Positions 3,301 to 32,487 of a DNA stretch of 32,640 nt are shown here, piece after piece. The DNA is taken from assembly GCA_032718475.1 (NCBI GenBank), contig JAUCBJ010003328.1, forward strand, positions 1 through 32,640, given 5' to 3'. The stretch comes from Nemertoderma westbladi (Eukaryota > Animalia > Xenacoelomorpha). The notes under the pieces were generated by a model. The model ran no database searches, was not told where the DNA came from, and saw nothing but the letters and a program-made list of their open reading frames with translations. The position numbers were made by a program, and so were the translations under genes. Every line of letters begins with the position of its first letter. Position 1 is the stretch's first letter.

Positions 3301-6300
3301 GCACGAGACTCAGTTAACCTGAGAAGCTGTAATCTATAGTACTTGCAACCAATCCACTTCTCAGCTGAGCTTCTATATACAGTAAGTATGTAAACATCAA
3401 CCGGGCCAGCATACACCTGCCTCTCTTATGAATGCAATTAGTGGATGGAGGGACAATTTGTAAATTTCCCGCCCAGGTACGGCGTCTAGACGAAGTGGAT
3501 ATTTAGCGCCTCCTAGTGACGGACCGTGAAATTGTGGGAAGCTATAAACTCTATGTACTCATTGAATTACGAATATTCCATACGTCAATCTGTGAAAGTT
3601 TCATCAAAATTGATGCAATGCTAAAGTTATTAAACCTAGACGAAGTGATGCGGTACCGCTAGAATACCTACCGGTACCGACTGACAGACTGTCTGATTTT
3701 TGACCAAACCTCATATTCTTTCTAAACTTTTGACGTACTACATACAGTACATACAAAGTTTGGTTTAATATCATCAAGGAATTACAAAGTTATTAGTGAT
3801 CAAAAGTTAGACGTGTGACGACTACGACAGACAACTCGTTAATGGTACCCATATGCTAAGGCTTCGCTCACTTCGTGGCTCGACAATACAGTCCCAGTCA
3901 GTTATATATTGAGTTGATTATACATTAACTTAGTTCAGATAAGCCCTCCAGTATTCAAATTATTTATACTTCATTATATAATTTGTTTTTTTCTCCGTAG
4001 ATTGCATTGATACCAATGGAGATTGTGATGATGTTTCCATGCCACAAAAATCAAAAGACTCTCATATACCTAGAATCTGTAAACTCTGTCACAAAGAAAC
4101 GCTTCGAATTAATGATCATCTACGCAATCGACACCAAATACAACATGCCGGGGTTTTAAGCCGGCTGTCTCTGGAGAGTAAAGAACTATATTTTAAGAAA
4201 TCTGGTGTGATAAGATTATATAAAAGTGGTAAAAAGAAACCGAATCGTCGAATATCGCGGTGCTTAATTTGCAATAAATGTTTTTATAAGATTGGTGACC
4301 ATCTGACTTGTAAACACAATCTTCTACCCGGAGATCCAGAGCGTGAACGAATGTTACATGATCCAAGTCGTTATATACTACCTGCTATTGACGCTGGTGA
4401 ACCAGGTGAACCTCCTATGATGGATCAATTTATGGATTATTTGAAAGCAGATTATAATGAAGAATCATTAAAAGAAAGAGAGAGGGATATCTTAATGATA
4501 GCTTCGAGTGTGAGAACATTCTTTAAACATATGGGTGATAATAAAGAGAACTACATACTAAGGTTCGATGAGATAAGTGATCCACAAAAATTACATAATG
4601 CATACTGTCAAGTAGCTTCTGAGAAAATTCGTGGTGGTGGCACCCGGTCTGCCAATACACTGAAAGCCGTACTAAGGAGACTTCAGAGATACTTTGAATT
4701 TCTTGTCTTAAATGATGTTAGCGGGGCCGTGAAAGGCCTGACAGTGACAAAAGATTTACAACGGCGACAGAAGTCCGATGTTAGAAAGCACGCCTATACA
4801 GTTCGCCAAAGGGCTACGGAAACCATGCCTACAGCTGAGGAGATAAATAAGTTTCAGACGTCTTCATATATTGATAAAATTCGCGACAATATTACAAGGT
4901 TACCTGACGTTGATGACAAAGACGAACTGACAGAAATGCAAACGTATCTTATAAGTCTAATAATATACGACCTGGGATTGCGAGAGTGTGTTGTAAAGAA
5001 CTTAAAAGTGAAACATTTCAAGGAGGGTTTTGTAACCACAGATATCAGCGGTAATAATGTGTTTATTTTTCAAGTACCAAATCACAAGACCTCAGGATTT
5101 TATGGACCACAGAAAATTATCATTAGCTATAAGGATTACGTTTTATTAAAGAAATGGGTTTATATCGGTCGCACATTATACACTTCTCGTACGTTGTCTT
5201 CTGATTCAAGTTTCGTATTTGTGACACGTAATGGAGAGCAACTTAACAACACCAGCATCCCACTTAATAACCTGTGGCAAAAACTCGTCCCAGGTTCCAA
5301 GTCGAAGGCAGGATCGACTAGTTTTCGGCACGCCAAGAGTTTTTTCAACCAAAGACTACCAGGAGAAGTCCATGAAAAAGAAAACGCTGCTCACTCAATG
5401 GGTCATTCTAGGGAAACACAATTACGGATATATGAGGCTGTTCAGTCAACCAGTGAGGCTTTATCAGCACGTGATAGACATCAAAGGGCATTCAACTTTG
5501 CTCTTTCACATCCTGGTTCTACTGCTCCAGACACCAATGCTATAGGACCAGATTCCAATGCTACAGGACCAGATTCCAATGCTACAGGACCAGATTCCAA
5601 TGCTACAGGACCAGATTCCAATGCTACAGGACCAGATTCCAATGCTATAGGACCAGATTCCAATGCTACAGGACCAGATTCCAATGCTATAGGACCAGAT
5701 TCCAATGCTATAGGACCAGATTCCAATGCTACAGGACCAGATTCCAATGCTACAGGACCAGATTCCAATGCTATAGACGTTTCACCTTCAAGAGAAAAGT
5801 TTGTTTTTTATTTATATAATTATAGTTTTGTTTTGACCTCAGGCCAATATTATTTATTTATTAATATTTATTATATCACCACCATAAAAACACAAACAAT
5901 GCAAATTATAATATGCTACTATAAAATTTTGTTGTTGGTGTTTATGGTATACTGTCAATTAATTATGACCCAGACAATCAACCCTATATCCTACCCACAT
6001 AATAATATAGATTGAGATTTTATTGACTTCTTGCAGCGAACAACTTATAAACGAGCACAGTATATCGAATATTACATAATGTAAAATAGCGATAAATTGT
6101 AATTAAGAACGATTTACTACTAATAGTCTAAATGCTTATTAACAAGGACAGCTAATTCCGACCCACTAAAATATCCATGAAACTTAATTGGGCCGCAATT
6201 GTCGGTGTTGGATTTTCCGGGTCGCAAGTGTTCGGGTCGGAATTGTCGGTGTTGGATTTTCCGGGTCGCAAGTGTTCGGGTCGGAATTGTCGGTGTTGGA

Positions 6301-7592
6301 TTTTCCGGGTCGCAAGTGTTCGGGTCGGAATTGTCGGTGTTGGATTTTCCGGGTCGCAAGTGGTCGTGTCGGAATTGTCGGTGTTGGATTTTCCGGGTCG
6401 CAAGTGTTCGGGTCGGAATTGTCGGTGTTGGATTTTCCGGGTCGCAAGTGTTCGGGTCGGAATTGTCGGTTTGGTGGTCGGAATTGTCGGTGTTGGATTT
6501 TCCGGGTCGCAAGTGTTCGGGTCGGAATTGTCGGTGTTGGATTTTCCGGGTCGCAAGTGTTCGGGTCGGAATTGTCGGTGTTGGATTTTCCGGGTCGCAA
6601 GTGTTCGGGTCGGAATTGTCGGTGTTGGATTTTCCGGGTCGCAAGTGTTCGGGTCGGAATTGTCTGTGTTGGATTTTCCGGGTCGCAAGTGTTCGGGTCG
6701 GAATTGTCGGTGTTGGATTTTCCGGGTCGCAAGTGGTCGTGTCGGAATTGTCGGTGTTGGATTTTCCGGGTCGCAAGTGTTCGGGTCGGAATTGTCGGTG
6801 TTGGATTTTCCGGGTCGCAAGTGTTCGGGTCGGAATTGTCGGTTTGGTGGTCGGAATTGTCGGTGTTGGATTTTCCGGGTCGCAAGTGTTCGGGTCGGAA
6901 TTGTCGGTGTTGGATTTTCCGGGTCGCAAGTGTTCGGGTCGGAATTGTCGGTGTTGGATTTTCCGGGTCGCAAGTGTTCGGGTCGGAATTGTCGGTGTTG
7001 GATTTTCCGGGTCGCAAGTGTTCGGGTCGGAATTGTCTGTGTTGGATTTTCCGGGTCGCAAGTGTTCGGGTCGGAATTGTCGGTGTTGGATTTTCCGGGT
7101 CGCAAGTGTTCGGGTCGGAATTGTCGGTGTTGGATTTTCCGGGTCGCAAGTGCTCGGGTCGGAATTGTCGGTGTTGGATTTTCCGGGTCGCAAGTGTTCG
7201 GGTCGGAATTGTCGGTGTTGGATTTTCCGGGTCGCAAGTGTTCGGGTCGGAATTGTCCGCTTATTAATTACAGTATTATCCCATCGTATTGTTTTTTTTA
7301 TATTCATTCATACATTCTCATGTAATCTTACATATTTCATACTTTCTTGTTTAGGAATGTGAATAATACGAGGAAGATTAAACAACTGCTGAAATCCAAG
7401 CGGGCTGTTTGGTCACCGAATTCATCTGTACGTCTCTGCGAAGCCTTCAGAGAAGAGATAAACGGAAAGCGGATTCCGAGAAATAATACCAAAATTGCCT
7501 CTGTCCGTCGTCTATTTCCCGGAAAAACTGACAAACAAATATACCAACGACTCAACGTTCTCAAACTAAAGATGAAACATGCCAAACCTTAA
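332..7592 (+). CDS. Spliced tyrosine recombinase gene (~949 aa): N-terminal domain, acidic linker, 2 C2H2-like Zn fingers, YR catalytic domain, GPDSNAT repeat, Myb/SANT-like C-terminus
   Basis: Hand-built exons: 332-575, 1155-1242, 2012-2109, 2469-2609, 2823-3065, 4001-5798, 7355-7592. All six introns are GT..AG, the phases match at every junction (1,2,1,1,1,2), and the 2850 nt contain no internal stop. AATAAA overlaps the stop. Not confirmed by transcripts. Confidence 0.72.
724..1041 (-). mobile_element. tRNA-derived SINE with Nin/Deu-like central domain (in intron 1)
   Basis: Minus strand has an A box (TGGTGTAGTGG), a B box (GGTTCAATCCC), a Nin-like core GCCTTTCATCCT..TAAATGGGTAC and a TTTAC/TTCAC-type tail. 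Confidence 0.65.
1394..1815. mobile_element. Degenerate MITE, possibly pogo-like
   Basis: Perfect 12-bp inverted repeat AATTTGGGACAT (1410-1421) / ATGTCCCAAATT (1791-1802). Exact ends unclear. Confidence 0.4.
2482..2600 (+). repeat. 60-bp coding duplication (PPxLEExESLLDExDGSSE x2)
   Basis: Two near-identical 60-bp units inside predicted exon 4. Confidence 0.9.
2951..3058 (+). repeat. 27-bp coding minisatellite (QEEFDAATT, ~4 copies)
   Basis: CAGGAGGAGTTTGATGCGGCCACGACA units in predicted exon 5. Confidence 0.9.
3280..3886. mobile_element. Non-autonomous dispersed repeat, Helentron/HINE-like (copy 1)
   Basis: Ends GTGGGGCTTTCGCGCAGCACGAGACTCAGTTAAC and AATGGTACCCAT..AAGGCTTCGCTCACTTCGTGGC, a GACA/GAC microsatellite, and internal degenerate TAGACGAAGTG repeats. 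Homologous to 16511-17290 and 26911-27140. Confidence 0.6.
4001..5798 (+). CDS. Main exon: Zn fingers plus tyrosine recombinase catalytic domain
   Basis: Fingers CKLC..H..H and CLIC..H..H. YR catalytic residues occur in order: R (GLRECV, 4981), K (HKT, 5086), xxR (TSFRH, 5326), H (MGH, 5404), Y (RIYE, 5431). The ORF tail after 5798 is AT-rich intron read-through. Confidence 0.88.
5536..5776 (+). repeat. 21-bp coding minisatellite (GPDSNAT/I, ~11 copies)
   Basis: AATGCTAYAGGACCAGATTCC units in frame downstream of the YR domain. Confidence 0.95.
6143..7258. mobile_element. MULE/foldback-like non-autonomous element made mostly of a 44-bp tandem array (~23-24 units), in intron 6
   Basis: Unit GGAATTGTCGGTGTTGGATTTTCCGGGTCGCAAGTGTTCGGGTC, with an inverted partial copy (GGACA..AATTCCGACCC) at 6146-6164. 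A 9-bp direct repeat GCTTATTAA at 6134-6142 and 7259-7267 is TSD-like. The array is certain; the MULE class is inferred. Confidence 0.62.
7355..7592 (+). CDS. Terminal exon encoding a Myb/SANT-like helical domain
   Basis: KRAVWS..LCEAFREEI..IP..LFPGKTDKQIYQRL pattern. Acceptor TTTCTTGTTTAG ending at 7354 is in phase 2 with the donor at 5799. Confidence 0.65.
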
Positions 7593-8878: not shown

Positions 8879-10126
8879 TCAATGCGTGGGACCCTCACGA
8901 GGAACATTGCGGGCGCGGGCTGCCTTTTGGGGAGCACCCTGGGCGACCTTGCGGTGTGCACCCTGACCCTGGGCGACGTTGAGTGGAGCACCCTGACCCT
9001 GGGCGACGTTGAGTGGAGCACCCTGACCCTGGGCAACGTTGAGTAGAGCACCCTGACCCTGGGCGACCTTGCGGTGTGTACCCTGACCCTGGGCGACGTT
9101 GAGTGGAGCACCCTGACCCTGGGCGACGTTGAATGGAGCACCCTGACTCTGGGCGACGTTGAGTGGAGCACCCTGACCCTGGGCAATGTTGAGTGGAGCA
9201 CCCTGACCCTGGGCGACGTTGAGTGGTGCACCCTGACCCTGGGCGACGTTGAGTGGAGCATCCTGACACTGAGCGACGTTGAGTGGAGCACCCTGACCCT
9301 GGGCGACGTTGAGTGGAGCACCCTGACCCTGGGCAATGTTGAGTGGAGCACCCTGACCCTGGGCGACGTTGAGTGGTGCACCCTGACCCTGGGCGACGTT
9401 GAGTGGAGCATCCTGACACTGAGCGACGTTGAGTGGAGCACCCTGACCCTGGGCGACGTTGAGTGGAGCACCCTGACCCTGGGCGACGTTGAGTGGAGCA
9501 CCCTGACCCTGGGCGATGTTGAGTGGAGCACCCTGACCCTGGGCGACGTTGAGTGGAGCACCCTGACCCTGGGCGACGTTGAGTGGAGCACCCTGACCCT
9601 GGGCGACGTTGAGTGGAGCACCCTGACCCTGGGCGACGTTGAGTGGAGCACCCTGACCCTGGGCGACGTTGAGTGGAGCACCCTGACCCTGGGCGACGTT
9701 GAGTGGAGCACCCTGACTCTGGGCGACGTTGAGTGGTGCACCCTGACCCTGGGCGACGTTGAGTGGAGCACCCTGACCCTGGGCGATGTTGAGTGGAGCA
9801 CCCTGACCCTGGGCGACGTTGAGTGGAGCACCCTGACCCTGGGCGACGTTGAATGGAGCACCCTGACCCTGGGCGACGTTGAGTGGAGCACCCTGACCCG
9901 GGGCGACATGGTGAGGAGCGTCCTGGTCGACATATTTTCTGAACACGAGCTCCCGATCGGTTGGCACTATTCTGATAATATGTACACGGGCAGCCATCAC
10001 CATCCCTTCCACGTTAGTGGCCGACTTCGCCCACCCAAACAGATTCCACCCACGATCTCCTTACCGGTCGAGTTTACCAACAACGTGGGCCCGGGCAGCG
10101 CCCCCTGGGATGCGATTCGTCTTTGC
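8879..10126 (-). pseudogene. Unknown protein exon with (QGQGAPLNVA)n repeat and a premature TAA at 10061-10063
   Basis: Acceptor CATGTAG ending at 10127. The frame reads AKTNRIPGGAARAHVVGKLDR*GDRGWNLFGW..VFRKYVDQDAPHH, then the repeat, then TGA at 8879. GC-rich against AT-rich flanks. Confidence 0.45.
8931..9910. repeat. 30-bp minisatellite, ~33 units
   Basis: Unit GGGCGACGTTGAGTGGAGCACCCTGACCCT; variant units recur at 150-bp spacing. Confidence 0.97.
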
Positions 10127-12099: not shown

Positions 12100-12957
12100 A
12101 ATCACCGGTAGATTAACAATCGTGTTTGTTTGGGGTATCACCGGTAGTTTAACAATCGTGTTTGTTTGGGGTATCACTGGTAGATTAACAATCGTGTTTG
12201 TTTGGGGTATCACCGGTAGTTTAACAATCGTGTTTGTTTGGGGTATCACTGGTAGATTAACAATCGTGTTTGTTTGGGGTATCACCGGTAGATTAACAAT
12301 CGTGTTTGTTTGGGGTATCACCGGTAGATTAACAATCGTGTTTGTTTGGGGTATCACTGGTAGTTTAACAATCGTGTTTGTTTGGGGTATCACCGTTAGA
12401 TTAACAATCGTGTTTGTTTGGGGTATCACCGGTAGATTAACAATCGTGTTTGTTTGGGGTATCACAGGTAGATTAACAATCGTGTTTGTTTGGGGTAATC
12501 ACCGGTAGATTAACAATCGTGTTTGTTTGGGGTATCACCGGTAGATTAACAATCGTGTTTGTTTGGGGTATCACCGGTAGATTAACAATCGTGTTTGTTT
12601 GGGGTATCACCGGTAGATTAACAATCGTGTTTGTTTGGGGTATCACCGGTAGATTAACAATCGTGTTTGTTTGGGGTATCACCGTTAGATTAACAATCGT
12701 GTTTGTTTGGGGTATCACCGGTAGATTAACAATCGTGTTTGTTTGGGGTATCACCGGTAGATTAACAATCGTGTTTGTTTGGGGTATCACCGGTAGATTA
12801 ACAATCGTGTTTGTTTGGGGTATCACCGGTAGATTAACAATCGTGTTTGTTTGGGGTATCACCGGTAGATTAACAATCGTGTTTGTTTGGGGTATTACCG
12901 GTAGATTAACAATCGTGTTTGTTTGGGGTATCACTGGTAGATTAACAATCGTGTTTC
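12100..12957. repeat. 36-bp minisatellite, ~24 units
   Basis: Unit ATCACCGGTAGATTAACAATCGTGTTTGTTTGGGGT; one unit near 12497 has an extra A. Confidence 0.97.
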
Positions 12958-20746: not shown

Positions 20747-21619
20747 CTGAATTGCTTAGCCATCTGAAATTATATAAATTATTATAGAATATTGGCTAAA
20801 TGAAAATTAAAAAATAACCATTTATTGCATGGAAAACAAATAGCTCCATTTTCCATATAAATATATCAAGGTATATATCAAAATATATCAAATATATCAA
20901 GACCTGAGTTGCCTTGCGGTTCTGCAGCACGAAAGCCCCACATGTTAGTTAGTTTAGAGATTGCTAGACTGTAATTAAAATGTTTGGAATAATATGTAGT
21001 TTTGATTTAGCCATACAAGTAATAATTATAACCATATGGTATGTGACAGCGTTGTGTTATTTCTATTAAAGGAACAGAATAATTAAAAATATTTATAACT
21101 ATAATTCCATTATAAACTTCTGTATATATAATTAATTATAAGCTTATTTTCTTATACCTATAAAATTATTCCTTATTATATATTTATATTTGGCAACCCT
21201 AAAAAAACATACATTACACAAAATAAATGCTTGATTGAATCAGTAACAACTATATCCAATCCACTTAGAATAAGGTAGGTAACAATAGGTGACATCAAAA
21301 ATATCTATACCATAGGTAGTTTTCACCACCATGGGCGTGAACACATTGTCAGATTTCCAAATCTGACAAGAGTCTAGAGACTTTTGAAGATATTATTACA
21401 GTTGGAGGAATTCCAAATAAGCGCTCGAAGAACAACCTGATTGTTAGACAAGCATCTTGAGACTGTAGATAATTACACACATGATTGCATATCCACATGG
21501 TTGACCATGAAAGGAGTAATTGTCAACCCCTTCCCAAGACCCATTTCTGTTATCTTTTTATCCATTTCAGCATGATCTGCTGCTTCCGTAATGAAAGGAC
21601 ACTGATACCACTGCCCAGA

Positions 21620-23400
21620 CACTTTAATATCCTTTTTGATAAAATAAAGGAAAATATTCAATTAAAAAGGGATTCCAATGCTGTTGCAGATCATTTTCGC
21701 TCAGTCAGCATCAATGTTGGTGATAAAGAGTGGACTACATTTGATACGATCACAGAAGATCGAGTTACTAAAATAATTAATGAACTGAAAACGACCTCTT
21801 CGCTGATTGACCCCATCCCAGCATCATTGTTGCGTCGTTCAGAACCAGTTATAAGTGTAATAAGACCTATTATTACAAGATATATCAATGTCTCTCTAAC
21901 AACTGGTTGCGTCCCTGACAAAGTAAAAACTGTTGTGACTAGCCCTCTCATTAAGAAGCGAAATTTGCATCCAAATGTTAAGAATAACTACAGACCTGTT
22001 TCTAACCTTGAATATGTTTCAAAAATATGTGAAAAAGAAGTAGCTTTTCAGTTACAGTTACATATGGCGAAAAATCGTGTTCTTTCAAAGTTCTTATCAG
22101 GGTATCGAAAACATTTTTCAACTGAAACTATGCTGACACGTATTCATAATGATATCATGGGTGCTTTGGATAACAAAAAGCTAGTTGCCTTATTACTATT
22201 GGATCAATCGGCAGCATTCGATACAGTAGATTATAATAAACTCATTACTTGCCTCATGGATATAGGAATTAAAGGGACGGTACTAGATTGGCTAAAGAGT
22301 TATCTTAGTGAGAGATCTTTTTGGGTAATGATCAAAGGAGTTCGATCTTGTGTGGTGAAACTTGATTCTGGCGTCCCGCAAGGCTCGATTTTGGGACCGT
22401 TATTGTACTTAATATATACTCTGCCGCTTGCTCAACTTTGCATGGACATGAACTTAAACTTTCAGATTTATGCTGATGATACACAGCTGTACTTCATCTT
22501 TGCTCTTAAAGATCTAGATATTATCAATAATGAGATAGTGAATGTGATAAATATACTAGATAATTGGATGGTGTCTGTGAACCTTATGTTAAATAGTGAC
22601 AAAACCGAGCTTATGATAATTCGTAATCGCTTTGCAATTGCTGATATTGAACCTGTAACTCTTATTTTTGGTGAGAAAAATGTGACTTCAGTATCTCATT
22701 TCAAATCTTTAGGATTCATACTTGATGACAAAATGAACATGGAAAGACACATTTCGTCTATTGTAAAGGTATCCAATTATAATTTAAGGAATATATCAAG
22801 GATAAGAAGATATTTATGTAGGGAGCAAACTGTAAAGCTGATGACGTCTTTAATACTATCGAGAATGGACTACTGTAAGTATTTATTAGTTGGTATTCTG
22901 GATTATCTACAGCAAAGATTTCAAAGGGTGATTAATAATTGCGCACGTGTTGTAAATTGTGTTAATAGGCGTTCTCATGTGACACCTCTACTCAAAGACC
23001 TTCATTGGTTGCCAACATCTTTCAGAATCAGGTATAAGATTGCATTAATAACTTGGAAGTGTTTAAATGGAGTTGCTCCTGATTACTTGGCTGAATTAAT
23101 TCAAATTAACTCCAAAGTGACACGATCGCAGTATAACTCAACTTTGGTAGTACCATCAACCAACTATAAAACATTTGGTGATAGATCTTTTTCAGCGGCT
23201 GCACCGTGAATCTTTAATGACCTACCATTGGAAATCAGGATAACGAGCAGTCTAGCTTCTTTCAAAACTATGCTTAAGTCACATTATTTTCTTAAGGCTT
23301 TTCCGAACTAATATTATGTAATGTACATATAAATGCGCATTAGACTTATTTATTTATAGATAGTGCGCTATATAAATTTGGTGTTATTATTATTATTATA
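21620..23400 (+). mobile_element. 5'-truncated non-LTR retrotransposon (L2/Daphne-like, CR1 group), reverse transcriptase
   Basis: Motifs NYRPVSNL, LLDQSAAFDTVD, GVPQGSILGPLL, YADDTQLY and LKDLHWLP. One premature TGA at 23207-23209, after which the frame continues IFNDLPLEIR..FKTMLKSHYF to TAA at 23311. 3' GCGCA..TGCGCTATATAAAT stem-loop and (TAT)n tail. Confidence 0.93.
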
Positions 23401-23499
23401 TGTAGTTAACTTGTACAAACCATAAAAACTATATTACTACCAATAAAAATAACAATAACAATTAACAACCGCCCCTATGAGGGGAAAGAAATAATTATT

Positions 23500-25662
23500 T
23501 CACAAAGTATCACAGATCATTTAGAGTTCATGTAGTGCAGATTTAAACTCCACTCCCTCTTCAGGGGTTAGGTCCAACAACACGGTAACTGTGCAGTATC
23601 TACTGCATATAGAGTTTTTGCAACAGGTGCTGTGCTTTGCATGTTAAACATGGCTATGTCCCTTGCACATTTCCCAAGGCCCATATTGAAGCGCCTATAT
23701 TTCCTAGCCCGATTTATCCGCAGGTTGCCCTGAGTTGTATTCAAACATTTTCTATTGTCGCGGAAAGCAATGGACATACAACCCAGCGAAAACTCAGATT
23801 CAACTTCGCTTTGTTTGCTGCTCGAAAATAGAACTAGATCTTTGTTATCGGAAGTAAAATGGTTTGATTGGTTGGATTGATAGGGTTCATTACCCTTAAC
23901 ATGTATGAGTCGGGATACTTCCCTAGGTGCCATCCAAGCGCCCAGTGATTGCAGGTTAATGTGCTCGTGGACCACAATAGCGGTCCGGCGACGGGTGTGT
24001 GGCATTTACCGGCAATTTGGGGGTTTCTTTAAATAGCTGATCCAATACTGGCCCTCGCATGTGGGCCGCACCCCGAGGATTTGGAGTAGCGAAGTAATCT
24101 AGCTTGTAATTCCTCTCGATAATACCCAATGCTATTGGGATGAGACACGGATCGAGAGCACCTTTTTGGCAACTTTCCCTCAGTGATTTTGCCAGACACT
24201 CAAGGTCTATGGATGGATTCTTTCCAAGCAGAAGGAGCATTGGAAACTCCATAGAGAAATTTCCAAGGTACTTTCTGAGATTGTGTACGGAATTGTACTC
24301 CCAGTAGTCCCCCTTCTCAATGCCATTAAGTTTTGGGTATAGCATCGTTGGTGCCAAGCGATCTCTCAAAGAGACTGTTTGCAGTGGCAACGAGACAAAT
24401 GGAAAAGAATTTGAGCTTACGTTGGCTTTCTAAAATCTCCTGTCATATGTCAGGTTTGTTATCTCTAATCCATTCTCTTGCGTATTCTAATATGATTAAT
24501 TCAGATTTTATGATTGCTACGAAGTCATCACTGCTTTGAATCTTACTCAGATATTAGGGCAGGGTACAAACCATGCCAACCAAGGTAGATCCTGTATTTA
24601 ACATCCCCATTACCATACCGGGAGGAACCTTAACAGGTAGCTCTTCTTCATCAATGAAGTTTTGGTATCCATCAGTCATTTCACGTACGTCTGGACACAT
24701 CTATTAGATCTGAGGTCACAGCACAGTTCACCAAGAACCCCGTTTTTATCCTTGACAGATAGCCCCTTTCCCAATCGGAGACTTTTTGACTCAAAAAGGT
24801 TCTCTAACATCAAGCAGATTGTTGTTAAGGTTCTGTGGTTGTGACTCTCGCAATTCTTAAAGATTGTGACTAAAATCCACTCTAAAGCAGGGATTGAGAT
24901 ACACTCTTATCTTCGATTATCTTCGATTTCGGCCACTTTCCCATAGATCTTAGATTTTGTCTACTGTACCTGCTTTGAGGGCACTACCATCATGCTTCTC
25001 CAAAATTATCTTAGAAATCTCCTCTATGGCCGATTGGAAGAAACGAAACATGATGCACGGCGAATCTATAGATCTCGCATCCTTCTGTCCTCTTCCCAAC
25101 TGCTTGATGAAGGTAGAGAGAGTTGTTATTCTAGCCCAGAGTTGCTCTTGAGTAAATTCCTTTTGAATGGTGCCTCAGCGAGTGTAGCTCGCATGTGGTC
25201 GAAGTAACTTGGTCCCACTGGGTAACCCAGGTTTTTCTCAAGAAACTGGTTTGTTTCCAAATACACATCAGCGGCTGGGCTATTGACATCTAAGAACGGG
25301 GAGTATGTCATCCTACCCTTTCTCAACTCATCAGCACGATGGATGCTTAACTTGTCTATCCATAAAGCGAGTAGAGAGTCAGGGTCTGTTTTAAGATCAT
25401 CCCTATATAGTTCAGCGCATCCTTGAACGACATCCAGGTCGACTTGAGAATTTATTAATTCATGGCGAAGTGTTAACTCTTTCCAGTCTGTAGAACGGCG
25501 GTACGGTTGTGTATTAGCAGTCTCATGATATTTCAGGGTCCGAATAGTGATATTTATAACATACCGTGTACATGTCCCGGTTCATACTGGTGGTGCGCCT
25601 ACATAGGCGTATAGGTTGTTGACGATGGGAGCCAATGCTTGATGAGCGAGTTTTGAAAACAT
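23500..25662 (-). pseudogene. PB1: Endogenous viral element: near full-length orthomyxovirus-like (Articulavirales) PB1 RNA-dependent RNA polymerase
   Basis: Collinear motifs read by hand across frames: LYAYVGAPPV*TGT (25614), GRMTYSPF, motif F KQLGRGQKDARSIDSP..RFF (~25100), damaged motif A EDN..EC (~24915), FESKSLRLGKG, motif B PGMVMGMLNTGST (24596-24619), motif C QSSDDF (24521-24538), motif D LGTNDAIPKT (~24350), motif E WEYNS..GNFSMEFP..GKNPSIDL (~24220-24303), DNRKCLNTTQ, and C-terminal MICDTL* at 23500. Confidence 0.93.
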
Positions 25663-26805
25663 GTTTAAAAGACCTCTTGCTATTGCTTACACTAATACAA
25701 ACAAGGCAACAAAGAGCTCAGTAGCAGCACTAAATAATTACCTTTGTGTCATCAAATGCACTAAAGATATAGCATGTATGAGTATGGAGGAACTAGGATA
25801 CCACAAATATAATTTCATTAAGCGATACAAAAAAAAATCAGGAGAAAAACTGGAAACCTCGACCCTTAGGAGTTACTTATACGGCCTATTGCACCATTAT
25901 AAGAAATTATGTATTAGGATTGTCTTGGAGCTGAAGGGATTTAAAGACTCTAAGGAGGTGTTTCATGCCAGGCTGTATCAGTTCAAGACCGATGGCAAGG
26001 GTATTGCCAGTGACTCAATGGATTCCCATAATTTCTCTACCATGAAGTCAAGCAGACAGCTTTAACATTCCACCAAACAGGTGTTGCGAAACACATTGTA
26101 TGTTATTTAAACAACCCAATTTGGTTACCATCATGGGTTCGAAATGAGAAACGTGATGGTTGGTAAACTAGTTATTTATTAGTTAGTTACCTTCACTTGC
26201 TACAACTGAAAGAGTGCAATATCAAAACCAGAAAGGGTTCCGTGCCAGGTAGAGTGGTTGTCCTAAAGGCATACAAGGTACCTACAGATGAAGGAATAAC
26301 TAAGACTTGTATGTCTAAGGATGGTTAATCTCTCTAAGGATGGTACATCATGGTTTTGCAACCAGCCCATTAGGAAGATGCAAATTTTGTTGTCAAATGC
26401 TCTGAAATTAACACGGAGTGTCGCAAGATCACCCTGATATCATATGCTGCTCAAACTATTGTTGATCAACATAAAACAGCAACCTATGCCCAGAAACAAC
26501 TAGGGTCATTCTATTTCAGCCACATCATCCCACTACATCAATACTATTGAAATGACATAGTATAATGTGAGCAACACCCTCTCACACATTACGTTATATC
26601 TGGTGGTGCAATGGATTTAGATGTGGATAACAACACCACAGAGCATTGTTTGAAGGTATGATACCTGCATCGACCACTGCATCAATGGCTACAACGTCCT
26701 TATCATCCACTAACACAGTACAGTGCACTGATGTCTCTATAGATAGGACAATGGACTTGATTTTTAGAAAAAGTAAGTTCTCTGGGAATGTGAACATATA
26801 CTGTA
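25661..26805 (+). pseudogene. Degenerate Crypton (DUF3504-type) tyrosine recombinase
   Basis: NTNKATKSSV..EEL..F..KKKSGEKLETSTLRSYLYGL..F..SKEV..A....K..GKG, then across stops and frameshifts VLRNTLY..FG....EMR, IKTRKG, WFCNQPI, KIT, LGHSISATSSHY and a C-terminal FSGNVNI. Confidence 0.8.
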
Positions 26806-26910
26806 CATTGGATTACACCAGAATACTAATAAGCCAACTTTTAAATAACAGTCAGTTAATATAACAAACTACAGTTTTAACTGACTGAATTAATTTTACA
26901 GTATGTGCGG

Positions 26911-27140
26911 AGAGCCACGAAGTAAGCGAACCTTAGCGTAGTGGAACCATTAATCAACCTGTCGTTATGTTGATCTGTTGCTATATTTATGCAGTGTTCA
27001 ACTTTGAACGTTAATTACTCGATCAATCCTCAATGAAATGTAACCAAACTTTGTAGACAATAGTCTTGTCAAAAGTTTATAAATTTTAGAATTTTAGGAA
27101 ATTTAGAAATTTGCGTGGGGCTTTCATGCAGCACCAGTAT
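26911..27140. mobile_element. Helentron/HINE-like dispersed repeat (short copy 3, inverted relative to copy 1)
   Basis: GAGCCACGAAGTAAGCGAACCTTAGC is a near reverse complement of the right end of copy 1. Internal AACCAAACTTTGTA..GTCAAAAGTTTA is shared; the copy ends with GTGGGGCTTTCATGCAGCAC. Confidence 0.55.
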
Positions 27141-27720
27141 AACTGTCTTACAGTTTGAATAAATGTATTTATCAAAAATTATTAGGCTTGACATCTTCGG
27201 GTTAGATACTTTCATAAAAAAAAATGTTTGAAAAGACTACCTCTCTGTCGAATTTTATCTATTCTAGCCTGTGGTGTAAAAAGTTCAATATAATTTTTTT
27301 TTCAAAAAATATATTGTTTTAGGGTTCGCCCAAGTCATATCTGTGTTGCTATAGTAACCACAACCACTTCCAGTGTCAAAAAAAAAAAGCAAAATGGCAC
27401 TTCCAATCATCACACAAGGAAGGGAATGGTCTCATTCGAACTGGAATCATCGATTTAGTGGGGGTAGGAGGTAGTTCTCATCTCAGATTGACTCTTCAGG
27501 CCTTAATGGACAAAAATGATTTTTTATTTTTCCACATCAAACTGTATCAGTATTTCATCATATCTGTATCTGTAACATCATAGTGTATCATCATATCTGT
27601 AACTGTATAATTGATATTATTATTTATTTATTAGCATTACCGCAATTGTAAATTAATTATTATTTGTCTCATGTTTTTAGAGTTATGTTATCATTCACTA
27701 ATGACAATGTTTCTTTTTAA

Positions 27721-29580
27721 CCTTTTACCTGCCACCCCTCGAAATTTTTTTAAAAATTATAAATTTATCATGTTTTTGACTTTAGATTCGTTGGGTATGA
27801 AAGGATCAGAACGATTTTTTCAAAACTACCCACTCTTTGACTCAGGGAGTGTATGTTCCCATATGGGAACATTGGCCGTTAAACAGACAAGGTAAATATT
27901 TATAACATTTTAAATAAACAGCATAGTTATAAGCATTAAAAACCATTACATCATTATTAGATCGTATTGAATCAGCATTAGATTGTGTATATGACAAGTA
28001 CAGACATATGTATTGTATGAAATATGTAAAATACCAGAGGATATAATATAAACTATACTGTACTCTGTATAATTGAAAAATAACACAAAAACAATATACT
28101 TGTATATATTACAAAATAGTAATAGTTTGCTTAGAGATCTTTATACTTGAGGTCATGATATAGTTCAAAACAAACAGCACTGCAATCATGGTGTAGACGA
28201 ACTTCAAAATTTCTCACATTTTTTCCTGCAATTCTTCCTGCAGTAGACACATCGACCTTGAGTGGTGGGGATTGCATTATGGCCAACACCATCATATCGC
28301 ACATCATTCGGAAGATCATAGTGATGGCCGCCACTAGTTGATATTCGTTTGCTGGCATCATATCTCATACGTGTTACAGTTACTGAAGATAGGAAGGACA
28401 GATGACTATCAGCATCCTTACCACCATGGATAGTAGTGTGAATGCGCCATGCTGCTACCAATGACACATTCAGTGCATTTATGAAAAGGGGACCACCACT
28501 TCTTGCCAGTGATCGTTGGGCGATAGGATCCAAGAAGACAATCCATCAGATCAACTCCACCCATGCCCTGATTATACATGCTAACAGCATGTGGTTGTGG
28601 AACGTTGATAACCCCTCCTTTCACACGACACTTTGCAGAATGCAATGGCGTCACTGCATGACAGGTAGATAACATTTGTACAGTGGAATTATCATTCCAC
28701 TTCACTAATGCCAGTGAACCTTTGCTAGCCACTTCATATTTGCCACGCTCCAACTTCTTGAATTGTGATGTAGCTGTTAGTACATTCTTTCCCCCACAGG
28801 TTCGATTTTCACGTACAGTTCCAGTAGCATGCCACCCTTTATCAGCCAAATCCATCATCAGGTCATAGCCAGTGAAAAGGTTGTCAAAAAACACCTCATG
28901 CTTGGCAGGATTGCTAACTGATTCAACCACAGATAGCATTGTGTTAGTGACATGCTCACCAAGAGGCCCATTACGTTTACTGTCTTTACCAGTGTATATC
29001 TCCATATGCAATAGATAACCATTGGATGCTGCCTGCGTCCAAATCTTATACCCAAAACGTATTGGTTTTCCACGGATGTATTGTCTAGCACTGTGGCGTC
29101 CACGGTAAGGAACCATGGATTCATCTATGCTCAACTGCTCCCAACAGATGCAAACTTTATGAAATTCTTATTTATACGCTTGTATATGGGATTTACTTTG
29201 GCAGCTTTGTCACCTTCAACCAGCTGGTTATTATCTGCCAAATGCAAATGTTTCTTTATTGCACGGAAACGATTCCGCGTCATGGTTTGGGCCACAAATT
29301 CAACATGAAAATCTGGAGAATTCGACCAATAATCACTCTCTGATGGCACCCAATGATACCCAGAAAAAAAGCAAAATTCCAATAAACTGACAATTAATTA
29401 TCTGTTAGAAATTGTATAATCCGGTGAATTCTTTTATATTGCATATAGCAAAGACTGTCTCCGAATCTCTTCCACTAGTTCATCATCGAATATTTCACAA
29501 AACAACTCATAAGGTGTCTTCAGTAACAGTTGTGTCTCCTTTTCTGCAAGATTATCTGCACATTCCTTATGGATGGTTTT
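27721..29580 (-). mobile_element. Decayed piggyBac transposon (PGBD2/3-like transposase, frameshifted, 5'-truncated)
   Basis: TPYELF..FDDE, SGYH..YWS..MTRNRF, SIDESMVPYRG, KPIRFGYKIW, FFDNLFT, YNQGMGGVDLMD and a Cys-rich tail RCVYC..C..LH..CF..YH ending at 28131. TTAA (27717-27720) plus CCTTTTACCTGCCA terminus; palindrome ATGTTCCCATATGGGAACAT at 27853-27872. Confidence 0.92.
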
Positions 29581-31126: not shown

Positions 31127-32487
31127 TTCATTGCTGGACCCGTTTATACTCGTTTATACTCATTGCTGGACCCGTTTATACTCGTTTATACTTGTAGCTG
31201 AACCCGTTTATACTCATTGCTGGACCCGTTTATACTTGTAGCTGAACCCTTTAATACTCATTGCTGGACCCGTTTATACTAGTTTATACTTGTAGCTGGA
31301 CCCATTTATACTCATTGCTGGACCCGTTTATACTCATTTATACTCATTGCTGGACCCGTTTATACTCGTTTATACTTGTAGCTGAACCCGTTTATACTCA
31401 TTGCTGGACCCGTTTATACTTGTAGCTGAACCCTTTTATACTCATTGCTGGACCCGTTTATATTTATACTTGTGCTAAATTCGGTTATACTTGTAGCTGA
31501 ACCCTTTTATATATACTCATTGCTGGACCCGTTTATACTAGTTTATACTTGTAGCTGAACCCCTTTGCCTTTATACTCATTGCTGGACCCGTTTATATTT
31601 ATACTTGTGCTAAATTCGGTTATACTTGTAGCTGGACCCGTTTATACTCATTGCTGGACCCGTTTATATTTATACTTGTGCTAAGTTCGGTTATACTTGT
31701 AGCTGGACCCGTTAATACTCATTGCTGGACCCTTTTATACTCGTTTATACTCATTGCTGGACCCGTTTATACTTGTAGCTGGACCCGTTTATACTCGTTT
31801 ATACTTGTAGCTGAACCCTTTTATACTCATTGCTGGACCCGTTTATACTTGTAGCTGGACCCGTTTATACTCATTGCTGGACCCTTTTATACTCGTTTAT
31901 ACTCATTGCTGGACCCGTTTATACTTGTAGCTGGACCCGTTTATACTCATTTATACTTGTAGCTGAACCCTTTTATACTCATTGCTGGACCCGTTTATAC
32001 TCATTGCTGGACCAGTTTATACTAGTTTATACATGTAGCTGAACCCTTTTATACTCATTGCTGGACCCGTTTATATTTATACTTGTGCTAAATTCGTTTA
32101 TACTCGTAGCTGGACCCGTTTATACTCATTGCTGGACCCATTTATACTCGTTTATACTCATTGCTGGACCCGTTTATACTAGTTTATACTTGTAGCTGAA
32201 CCCTTTTATACTCATTGCTGGACCCGTTTATACTCGTTTATACTCATTGCTGGACCCGTTTATACTTGTAGCTAAACCCTTTTATACTCATTGCTGGACC
32301 CGTTTATATTTATACTTGTGCTAAATTCGGTTATACTTGTAGCTGAACCCTTTTATACTCATTGCTGGACCCGTTTATATTTATACTTGTGCTAAATTCG
32401 GTTATACTTGTAGCTGAACCCTTTTATACTCATTGCTGGACCCGTTTATATTTATACTTGTGCTAAATTCGGTTATACTTGTAGCTA
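31127..32487. repeat. Composite minisatellite/satellite of related 22-bp and 10-bp modules
   Basis: Modules TACTCATTGCTGGACCCGTTTA, TACTTGTAGCTGAACCCTTTTA, TACTCGTTTA and TACTTGTGCTAAATTCGGTTA in shuffled order. Confidence 0.95.

Follow-up and report, generated by a model that had tools for sequence, protein, structure and literature searches.

The 32,640-nt stretch of DNA analyzed here (hereinafter, the window) contains, with a probability of about 0.7 for the reading as a whole, a 2.24-kb copy of the PB1 segment of a virus related to Wenling orthomyxo-like virus 1, which was inserted into a Crypton-like repeat and likely made by an L2/CR1-type LINE copying viral RNA in the germline. The initial annotation had interpreted the region as a PB1 fossil that became part of the genome of an animal. 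This proposal was borne out, since both ends of the element are joined to host DNA, the duplication at its borders is precise, and the coding region is decayed. That the insertion is genuine is virtually certain.

The decayed PB1 region and its phylogenetic position

The decayed PB1 coding region occupies positions 23521..25662 of the minus strand, as delimited by profile matches and a frame map. Translations of this strand contain, in the right order, all of the PB1 motifs named initially: LYAYVGAPPV*TGT, KQLGRGQKDARSIDSP, LRLGKG, GMVMGMLN, QSSDDF, NFSMEFP, and LNTTQ. Matches with the Flu_PB1 profile of Pfam were noted for three of the six stop-free pieces tested, at the collinear profile positions 33–170, 213–280, and 479–578. 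When stops were written as X, the same profile gave 72.9 and 56.7 bits in two of the three frames against a cut-off of 26.4, in agreement with the PB1 assignment. A further profile, built from the fetched PB1 sequences, produced 14 matches in the six frames of the whole window; all ten matches above 8 bits were located at 23610–25644 on the minus strand, and the reversed-sequence control scored 0 bits or less. The GMVMGMLN sequence (24596..24619, minus strand) was taken to be the core of polymerase motif B. The catalytic palm motif is represented by SSDD (24524..24535, minus strand); according to PMC10636315, the palm motif of PB1 is SDD. This motif and the polymerase motifs are ordered as in the PB1 of Articulavirales, and motif A is there in a broken form.

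The several stops and frameshifts claimed for the region were found in the frame map: within the homologous stretches, the frame changes at least six times and is interrupted by three stops. Six frame changes are clear (near 25180, 24930, 24710, 24340, 24030, and 23860, minus strand), and a seventh was placed by eye near 23600 on the same strand. The internal stops are located near 25583, 24908 (within motif A), and 24555 of the minus strand. Description of the element as near-complete is correct, but it is not complete: near 25175, about 40 reference codons in comparison with Thogoto, and 55–60 in comparison with Wenling, have no counterpart. As for the proposed extent from 25662 to 23500, the ATG at 25662 was retained, whereas the insert is wider (23454–25693) and an in-frame TAA at 23523–23521 precedes the TGA at 23502–23500. 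The TAA is the likelier end of PB1 coding; the final ~55 codons were judged by eye only.

As a protein, the copy is dead, and no functional polymerase can be made from it; it may possibly serve as a source of small RNA. Based on three to four stops and on 4% of substitutions giving a stop, decay was estimated at about 4–5% of sites (range 1–12%). This is of the order of the 5–7% found between copies of the target repeat and exceeds the 0.7% found between alleles.

Among 1.84 billion representatives, the best matches of the element were two PB1 proteins of the Wenling clade (E 1e-33 and 1e-21). For the phylogenetic analysis, seven in-frame pieces were joined (541 residues, with X at every break). 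In five of the five trees, the element formed a supported clade with AVM87616 and UMO75720 and, where these were included, with L001 and L002. In the quick mixture tree of 33 rows, from which four near-identical influenza A rows had been dropped, the SH-aLRT support of this clade was 99. Dropping eight more rows, including the two longest branches, gave a 25-row LG+G4 tree with a support of 100/100, and the 13-row mixture-model tree showed 97/98. Trees for the two halves of the element (16 rows) supported the clade with 100/99 and 100/100. The branch of the element is long (1.3–1.8), and the trees were constructed without the published PB1 rows from whelk, goby, flatworm, comb jelly, isopod, and nematode. 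When the pieces were left unjoined, all seven scored best against the Wenling clade, piece 1 narrowly (63.5 vs. 58.5 bits). Thus, in the PB1 phylogeny, the element lies outside the influenza and thogoto-like groups and within the Wenling clade, to which it very probably belongs.

Derivation from a thogotovirus or an influenza-like virus, whose features the initial annotation had recognized in several motifs, is highly improbable. The best match among solved structures is indeed Thogoto PB1, and the promoter-type end described below coincides in 14 of 15 positions with the genomic end of influenza C/D; however, members of the Wenling clade are absent among the PDB matches, and monophyly was rejected both with the thogoto-like rows (AU p 4.1e-11, LG+G4) and with the influenza rows (AU p 6.6e-8, LG+G4). 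PB1 identity is 32–35% to the Wenling clade, 25–27% to thogoto-like rows, and 22–25% to influenza. The motifs cited as influenza-like are shared more widely, and QSSDD occurs also in Wenling and Xinjiang proteins. Thogoto and influenza C/D PB1 have in common with the element the fold family, SSDD, and a promoter with G2-C9 pairing potential, and Thogoto and influenza D also share a start codon at +26; they differ from it in their low identity (22–27%) and in the rejected monophyly.

The closest relatives from the Wenling clade are 34% identical to the element over ~535 aligned residues, which is below the identity of influenza A vs. C in the same columns (44%). Members of the clade are 35% identical to one another, that is, approximately as distant as the element is from them. 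Since decay of a few per cent cannot account for this distance, the source virus probably represented its own genus-level branch. The suggestion of a divergent, possibly undescribed lineage of Articulavirales is therefore right as to divergence; the lineage is not wholly undescribed, as it falls into a clade of published, unclassified viruses. These relatives are sequences from RNA surveys with putative hosts, whereas the element is a decayed DNA copy.

Two partial PB1 segments, L001 (1407 bp) and L002 (1411 bp), show identities of 59% and 51%, respectively, with Wenling orthomyxo-like virus 1 and are further members of its clade. The word GRMTY is common to isopod viruses and the element. A word-index protein search, which also missed known PB1 proteins, gave no match for the frame-1 read, only two clade members for alignment A1, and only the query itself for P0005. 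Among metagenome contigs, none of 289 candidates was confirmed.

The clade is probably the one provisionally called 'Metamyxovirus' in passages of PMC10636315, the data set of which includes both AVM87616 and UMO75720. In the alignment of PMC12277240, both accessions stand beside flatworm, whelk, Yancheng, and comb-jelly viruses, the order of rows being a hint only. The same flatworm, whelk, Yancheng, and comb-jelly sources are the hosts named for the clade in passages of PMC10636315 and PMC10101049 (the second unclassified clade in PMC10101049). 'Metamyxovirus' is described as including viruses of whelk, squid, goby, flatworm, louse, and hydra; these passages of PMC10636315 and PMC10101049 do not name Wenling virus 1 as a 'Metamyxovirus'.

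The insertion and its allelic forms

Boundaries of the insert were determined using contigs of three public sequencing runs (X1, X2, and X3) from one organism, comprising two samples and two studies. X2 and X3 are filed under one sample, and the study of X2 differs from that of X1. According to the junctions in these contigs, the insert has a length of 2,240 bp (23454–25693) and is accompanied by a 4-bp duplication. Contigs of all three runs contain the joint 23453->25694, in which 2,240 bases are skipped and four letters fit both sides. This empty site has a single AATA, and the insert has one on either side: copy 1, at the viral 3' junction, at 23454..23457 and copy 2 at 25694..25697 (plus strand, both from contig joints). 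At the empty site, which has lost no bases of the target, the summed depth is 156–636 vs. 30–45 over the PB1 element, and the empty sites are paralogous copies of a multi-copy repeat, not an empty allele of the locus.

The left part of this Crypton-like target repeat lies at 23401..23453 (plus strand), where deep contigs join it to 25694. The right part (25698..26128, plus strand) carries an ORF similar to QRICH1/ALOG/Phage_int_SAM proteins (Atlas matches 0.93–0.97), and the empty site reads through into it in one frame. We take this ORF to be of the Crypton type; no match was found for it in Pfam. Other copies of the repeat differ by about 5–7%.

Junctions of the element are supported by reads: it is covered by two X1 contigs that agree with it at every letter and extend 84 and 35 bases beyond the junctions. 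An X2 contig covers 23427–24570, with the viral 3' half placed between host DNA on both sides, and has eight other letters and one gap in 1143. Its host overlaps (27–31 and 29 bases) are at or under the 31-base bar, and both ends fit. In X3, the element has no cover. Inheritance of the element is indicated by allelic variants in two samples from two studies and by neutral decay.

A chimera of the assembly or contamination with viral sequence, instead of host DNA, is scarcely credible. In its favor, X1 may be the source sample of the assembly itself, and the DNA nature of the runs is only guessed; against it, a live virus could not carry so many stops and frame changes, the duplication within a host repeat is precise, and the allele from the second study has its own substitutions and a deletion joined to host DNA.

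This second allele lacks a stretch of 3,639 bp (24571..28209), as follows from the X1 and X2 contigs. The loose end common to them matches 28210–28234 exactly, while none of 100 shuffles gave a match; the second allele therefore lacks 24571–28209. The deletion removes the viral 5' half, and its joint shows microhomology of 3–4 bp. X1 carries both the full and the deleted forms.

In addition, record 5 of X1 (422 bp) contains a second, collinear copy of the PB1 5' region, which corresponds to window positions 25473–25493 and 25649–25686. The likeness ends at 25686, and the flank of this copy is absent from the window; the same viral end is thus marked independently. Among its 30 loose letters, 11 differ from the window, and by hand count seven of ten codons keep the residue, three of them synonymously. 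Over these 30 letters, the comparison is consistent with a related virus having given rise to the second copy in an insertion of its own.

A young LINE fragment with an RT ORF and a TTA tail lies next to the target repeat (21485..23399, plus strand; RVT_1, E 1.2e-26). By its motifs, we assume that it is of the L2/CR1 type. Compared with high-depth contigs, it shows 16 differences over 1404 nt, and its ORF is open over 574 codons. Look-alikes of its protein in the Atlas belong to Chordata, Ctenophora, and Arthropoda. Co-insertion of the PB1 element with this LINE was rejected because they are separated by 55 bp of the target repeat, and because the LINE has kept its ORF open and is ~1% from its family. 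The LINE is a separate insertion, probably younger than the PB1 element.

Other features of the window were also noted. A 677-codon open frame (3982–6015, plus strand) ends in a 21-bp tandem repeat, and its Pfam match is to the repeat only; judging by eye, it presumably has zinc-finger-like and tyrosine-recombinase-like motifs and may be Crypton-like or DIRS-related. A fragment of a piggyBac-like transposase is located at 28418–29167 of the minus strand (DDE_Tnp_1_7, E 1e-47). The repeat at 26775–27276 has a very high copy number (in each of the three runs, one bin has a summed depth of 34,000–71,000) and is a candidate SINE or MITE. Minisatellite arrays at 6190–7257, 8936–9907, 12101–12956, and 31128–32486 (units of 44, 30, 36, and 22–76 bp, respectively) create spurious long ORFs. 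A search of the window against Rfam gave no matches. The CpG observed/expected ratio is 0.81 outside tandem repeats (0.31–0.95 by region), unlike the uniform CpG depletion of vertebrate genomes, and the invertebrate host suggested initially is likely, an arthropod being among the possibilities.

Segment ends and the route of integration

The viral 5' UTR (25 nt; 25663..25687, minus strand) starts with the promoter-type end AGCAATAGCAAGAGG (25687–25673). Ends for comparison were taken from the 31 PB1 loci of a viral collection, and most labels of these loci are our own assignments by length and ends. The exceptions are L007 (Thogoto), L008 (influenza D), and L009 (influenza C), which were identified by the top full-length match with a PDB chain (entries given in PMC11139864). 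The 15-mer AGCAATAGCAAGAGG agrees in 14 of 15 positions with the PB1 segment ends of influenza C and D, taken as the reverse complement, and in 7–11 of 15 with the coding-strand 5' ends of nine references. A promoter pattern, picked after seeing the references, occurs once in the window vs. a shuffle mean of 0.07, and this occurrence is six bases from the junction. The orthomyxovirus promoter forms a hook at positions 1–10, with A1, the G2-C9 pair, a 3–8 pair, and A10 (PMC11139864); the end at 25687–25673 keeps the hook positions A1, G2/C9, C3/G8, and A10. The ATG is located at +26, the position that it also has in Thogoto and influenza D; in five of the 12 references it is at 25–27, and in the others at 18–21 or 32–36. 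The segment L001 starts with a clipped promoter-like end before its start codon.

Between the promoter and the target, six extra bases, AGTGTA, belonging to neither, are present (25688..25693, minus strand). They represent either junction filler of the LINE type or a remnant of a cap-snatched leader. Within 300 nt of the flanks, the best match to AGTGTA is 5/6, and an overlapping 6-mer gives 6/6, which is attainable by chance. Counted as a leader, the sequence before the promoter has six bases, or ten with the duplication, vs. the 9–13 nt given for cap-snatched leaders in PMC11139864, and an origin of the six bases from the flank is equally plausible.

The opposite end consists of a 3' non-coding tail (23458..23520, minus strand) with a TTG/TTA-rich terminus and a small hairpin at 23472–23484. 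About 36 bases at this end are of uncertain origin. In the tail, no A5–6 run and no poly(A) were found, the longest run being AAA. Among the references, 11 of 12 have an A5–6 run followed by 15–16 bases, and the twelfth is clipped; the 3' end pairs with the 5' end of the same segment in six of the seven tested (p < 0.03). A degenerate complementary 3' end in the element was considered and rejected (shuffle p 0.26). Absence of a complementary 3' end is expected of an mRNA copy, so it bears on the template and not on membership in the family.

Orthomyxoviruses replicate in the nucleus and have no DNA stage; hence, a host reverse transcriptase was required. We regard a LINE as the probable route. 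The virus would have replicated in the nuclei of germline cells, where the LINE protein may have nicked the AT-rich target, with the AATA end priming on the 3' end of the RNA. The RNA would then have been copied through to its 5' end and joined with filler bases, and the inserted copy would have decayed neutrally. According to PMC4245944, the lengths of target duplications of L2 and CR1 peak at 3–5 bp, vs. 13–15 bp for L1 and 10–12 bp for RTE, and about half of the copies of zebrafish ZfL2-2 carry additional bases at the 5' end, which often come from the flank. The 4-bp duplication together with six extra bases fits this L2/CR1 pattern. The 3' junction, without poly(A), is TTG/TTA-rich like the tail of the neighboring LINE, but it is short and of low complexity. 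The neighboring young LINE shows that such an enzyme is present in the genome; being a separate and probably younger insertion, this LINE is no more than a candidate for the agent.

As for the template, the intact promoter end, the extra bases, and the missing terminal complement fit mRNA best, and we give mRNA, rather than cRNA or vRNA, an even chance. The lack of poly(A), the ~36 unexplained 3' bases, and the same end in the second copy keep two other readings alive. In one of them, which we consider unlikely, the template was genomic minus-sense RNA; copying would have begun at its 3' end and stopped short, with six bases added at initiation. Absence of poly(A) is consistent with such a template, and the same end is kept in both copies seen (the second matching to 25686), and truncation in LINE copies of long mRNAs often affects the very end that is preserved in the element (PMC4245944). 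Nevertheless, the target end and the promoter do not pair in a way that could prime copying, and RNA-virus fossils generally span single transcripts, as stated in PMC2987831.

In the other, rather improbable reading, cDNA made by another reverse transcriptase, e.g., that of an LTR retrotransposon, was captured at a double-strand break, and the 4-bp repeat would be microhomology, which a 4-bp match in AT-rich DNA could be. It agrees with the 36 unexplained 3' bases, with the proneness of the region to microhomology deletions, and with the insect viral fossils, which are typically without duplications or poly(A) according to PMC2987831. At the same time, the empty site loses no target bases, the junction has the L2/CR1 pattern, and LTR-like or inverted ends of the insert were found neither by eye nor among 13 inverted pairs.

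Other viral fossils and significance of the element

Orthomyxo-like fossils, including PB1, have been described from ticks, a moth, and fireflies and are mostly quaranjavirus-like; the fossil set of Chilo is 49–77% identical to living viruses (PMC2987831, PMC10675110, PMC12810003, and PMC6191289). Such fossils are, like the element, non-retroviral and of the same order, and some derive from PB1; the element differs from them in its clade, its near-full length, and its promoter end with duplication. The mammalian bornavirus and filovirus inserts made by LINEs resemble the element in carrying a single viral transcript with a target duplication, but they have poly(A) tails (PMC2987831), and L1 leaves duplications of 13–15 bp (PMC4245944), whereas the element has a 4-bp duplication and no poly(A). 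The main text of a vertebrate-wide survey (PMC11521997) does not mention the order. No fossil of the Wenling clade was found in the literature covered, outside which most subscription journals lie.

It is possible, and is proposed here tentatively, that, for the aquatic 'Metamyxovirus'-like clade, the element is the first fossil from a germline and is one of several insertions that arose independently in a non-insect invertebrate, copied from cap-snatched mRNA by an L2-type LINE. If true, a clade found mainly in surveys of fish and sediments would have invertebrates as true hosts, and the fossil would preserve the promoter and mRNA start of this clade, which no living member yet supplies in full. 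The element supplies the complete 5' segment end for its clade; in L001, the closest segment retrieved, this end is clipped. The usefulness of the fossil lies in its lineage, exact junctions, promoter, and alleles; since its junctions are known to the base, they point to integration by a LINE, a route of which insect fossils reportedly show no sign.

A germline insertion is direct evidence of infection of the host lineage. The second copy, if independent, suggests that infection occurred repeatedly and that further segments are to be expected. A minimum age could be derived from orthologous loci in sister species for a branch near the base of the influenza–Thogoto radiation.
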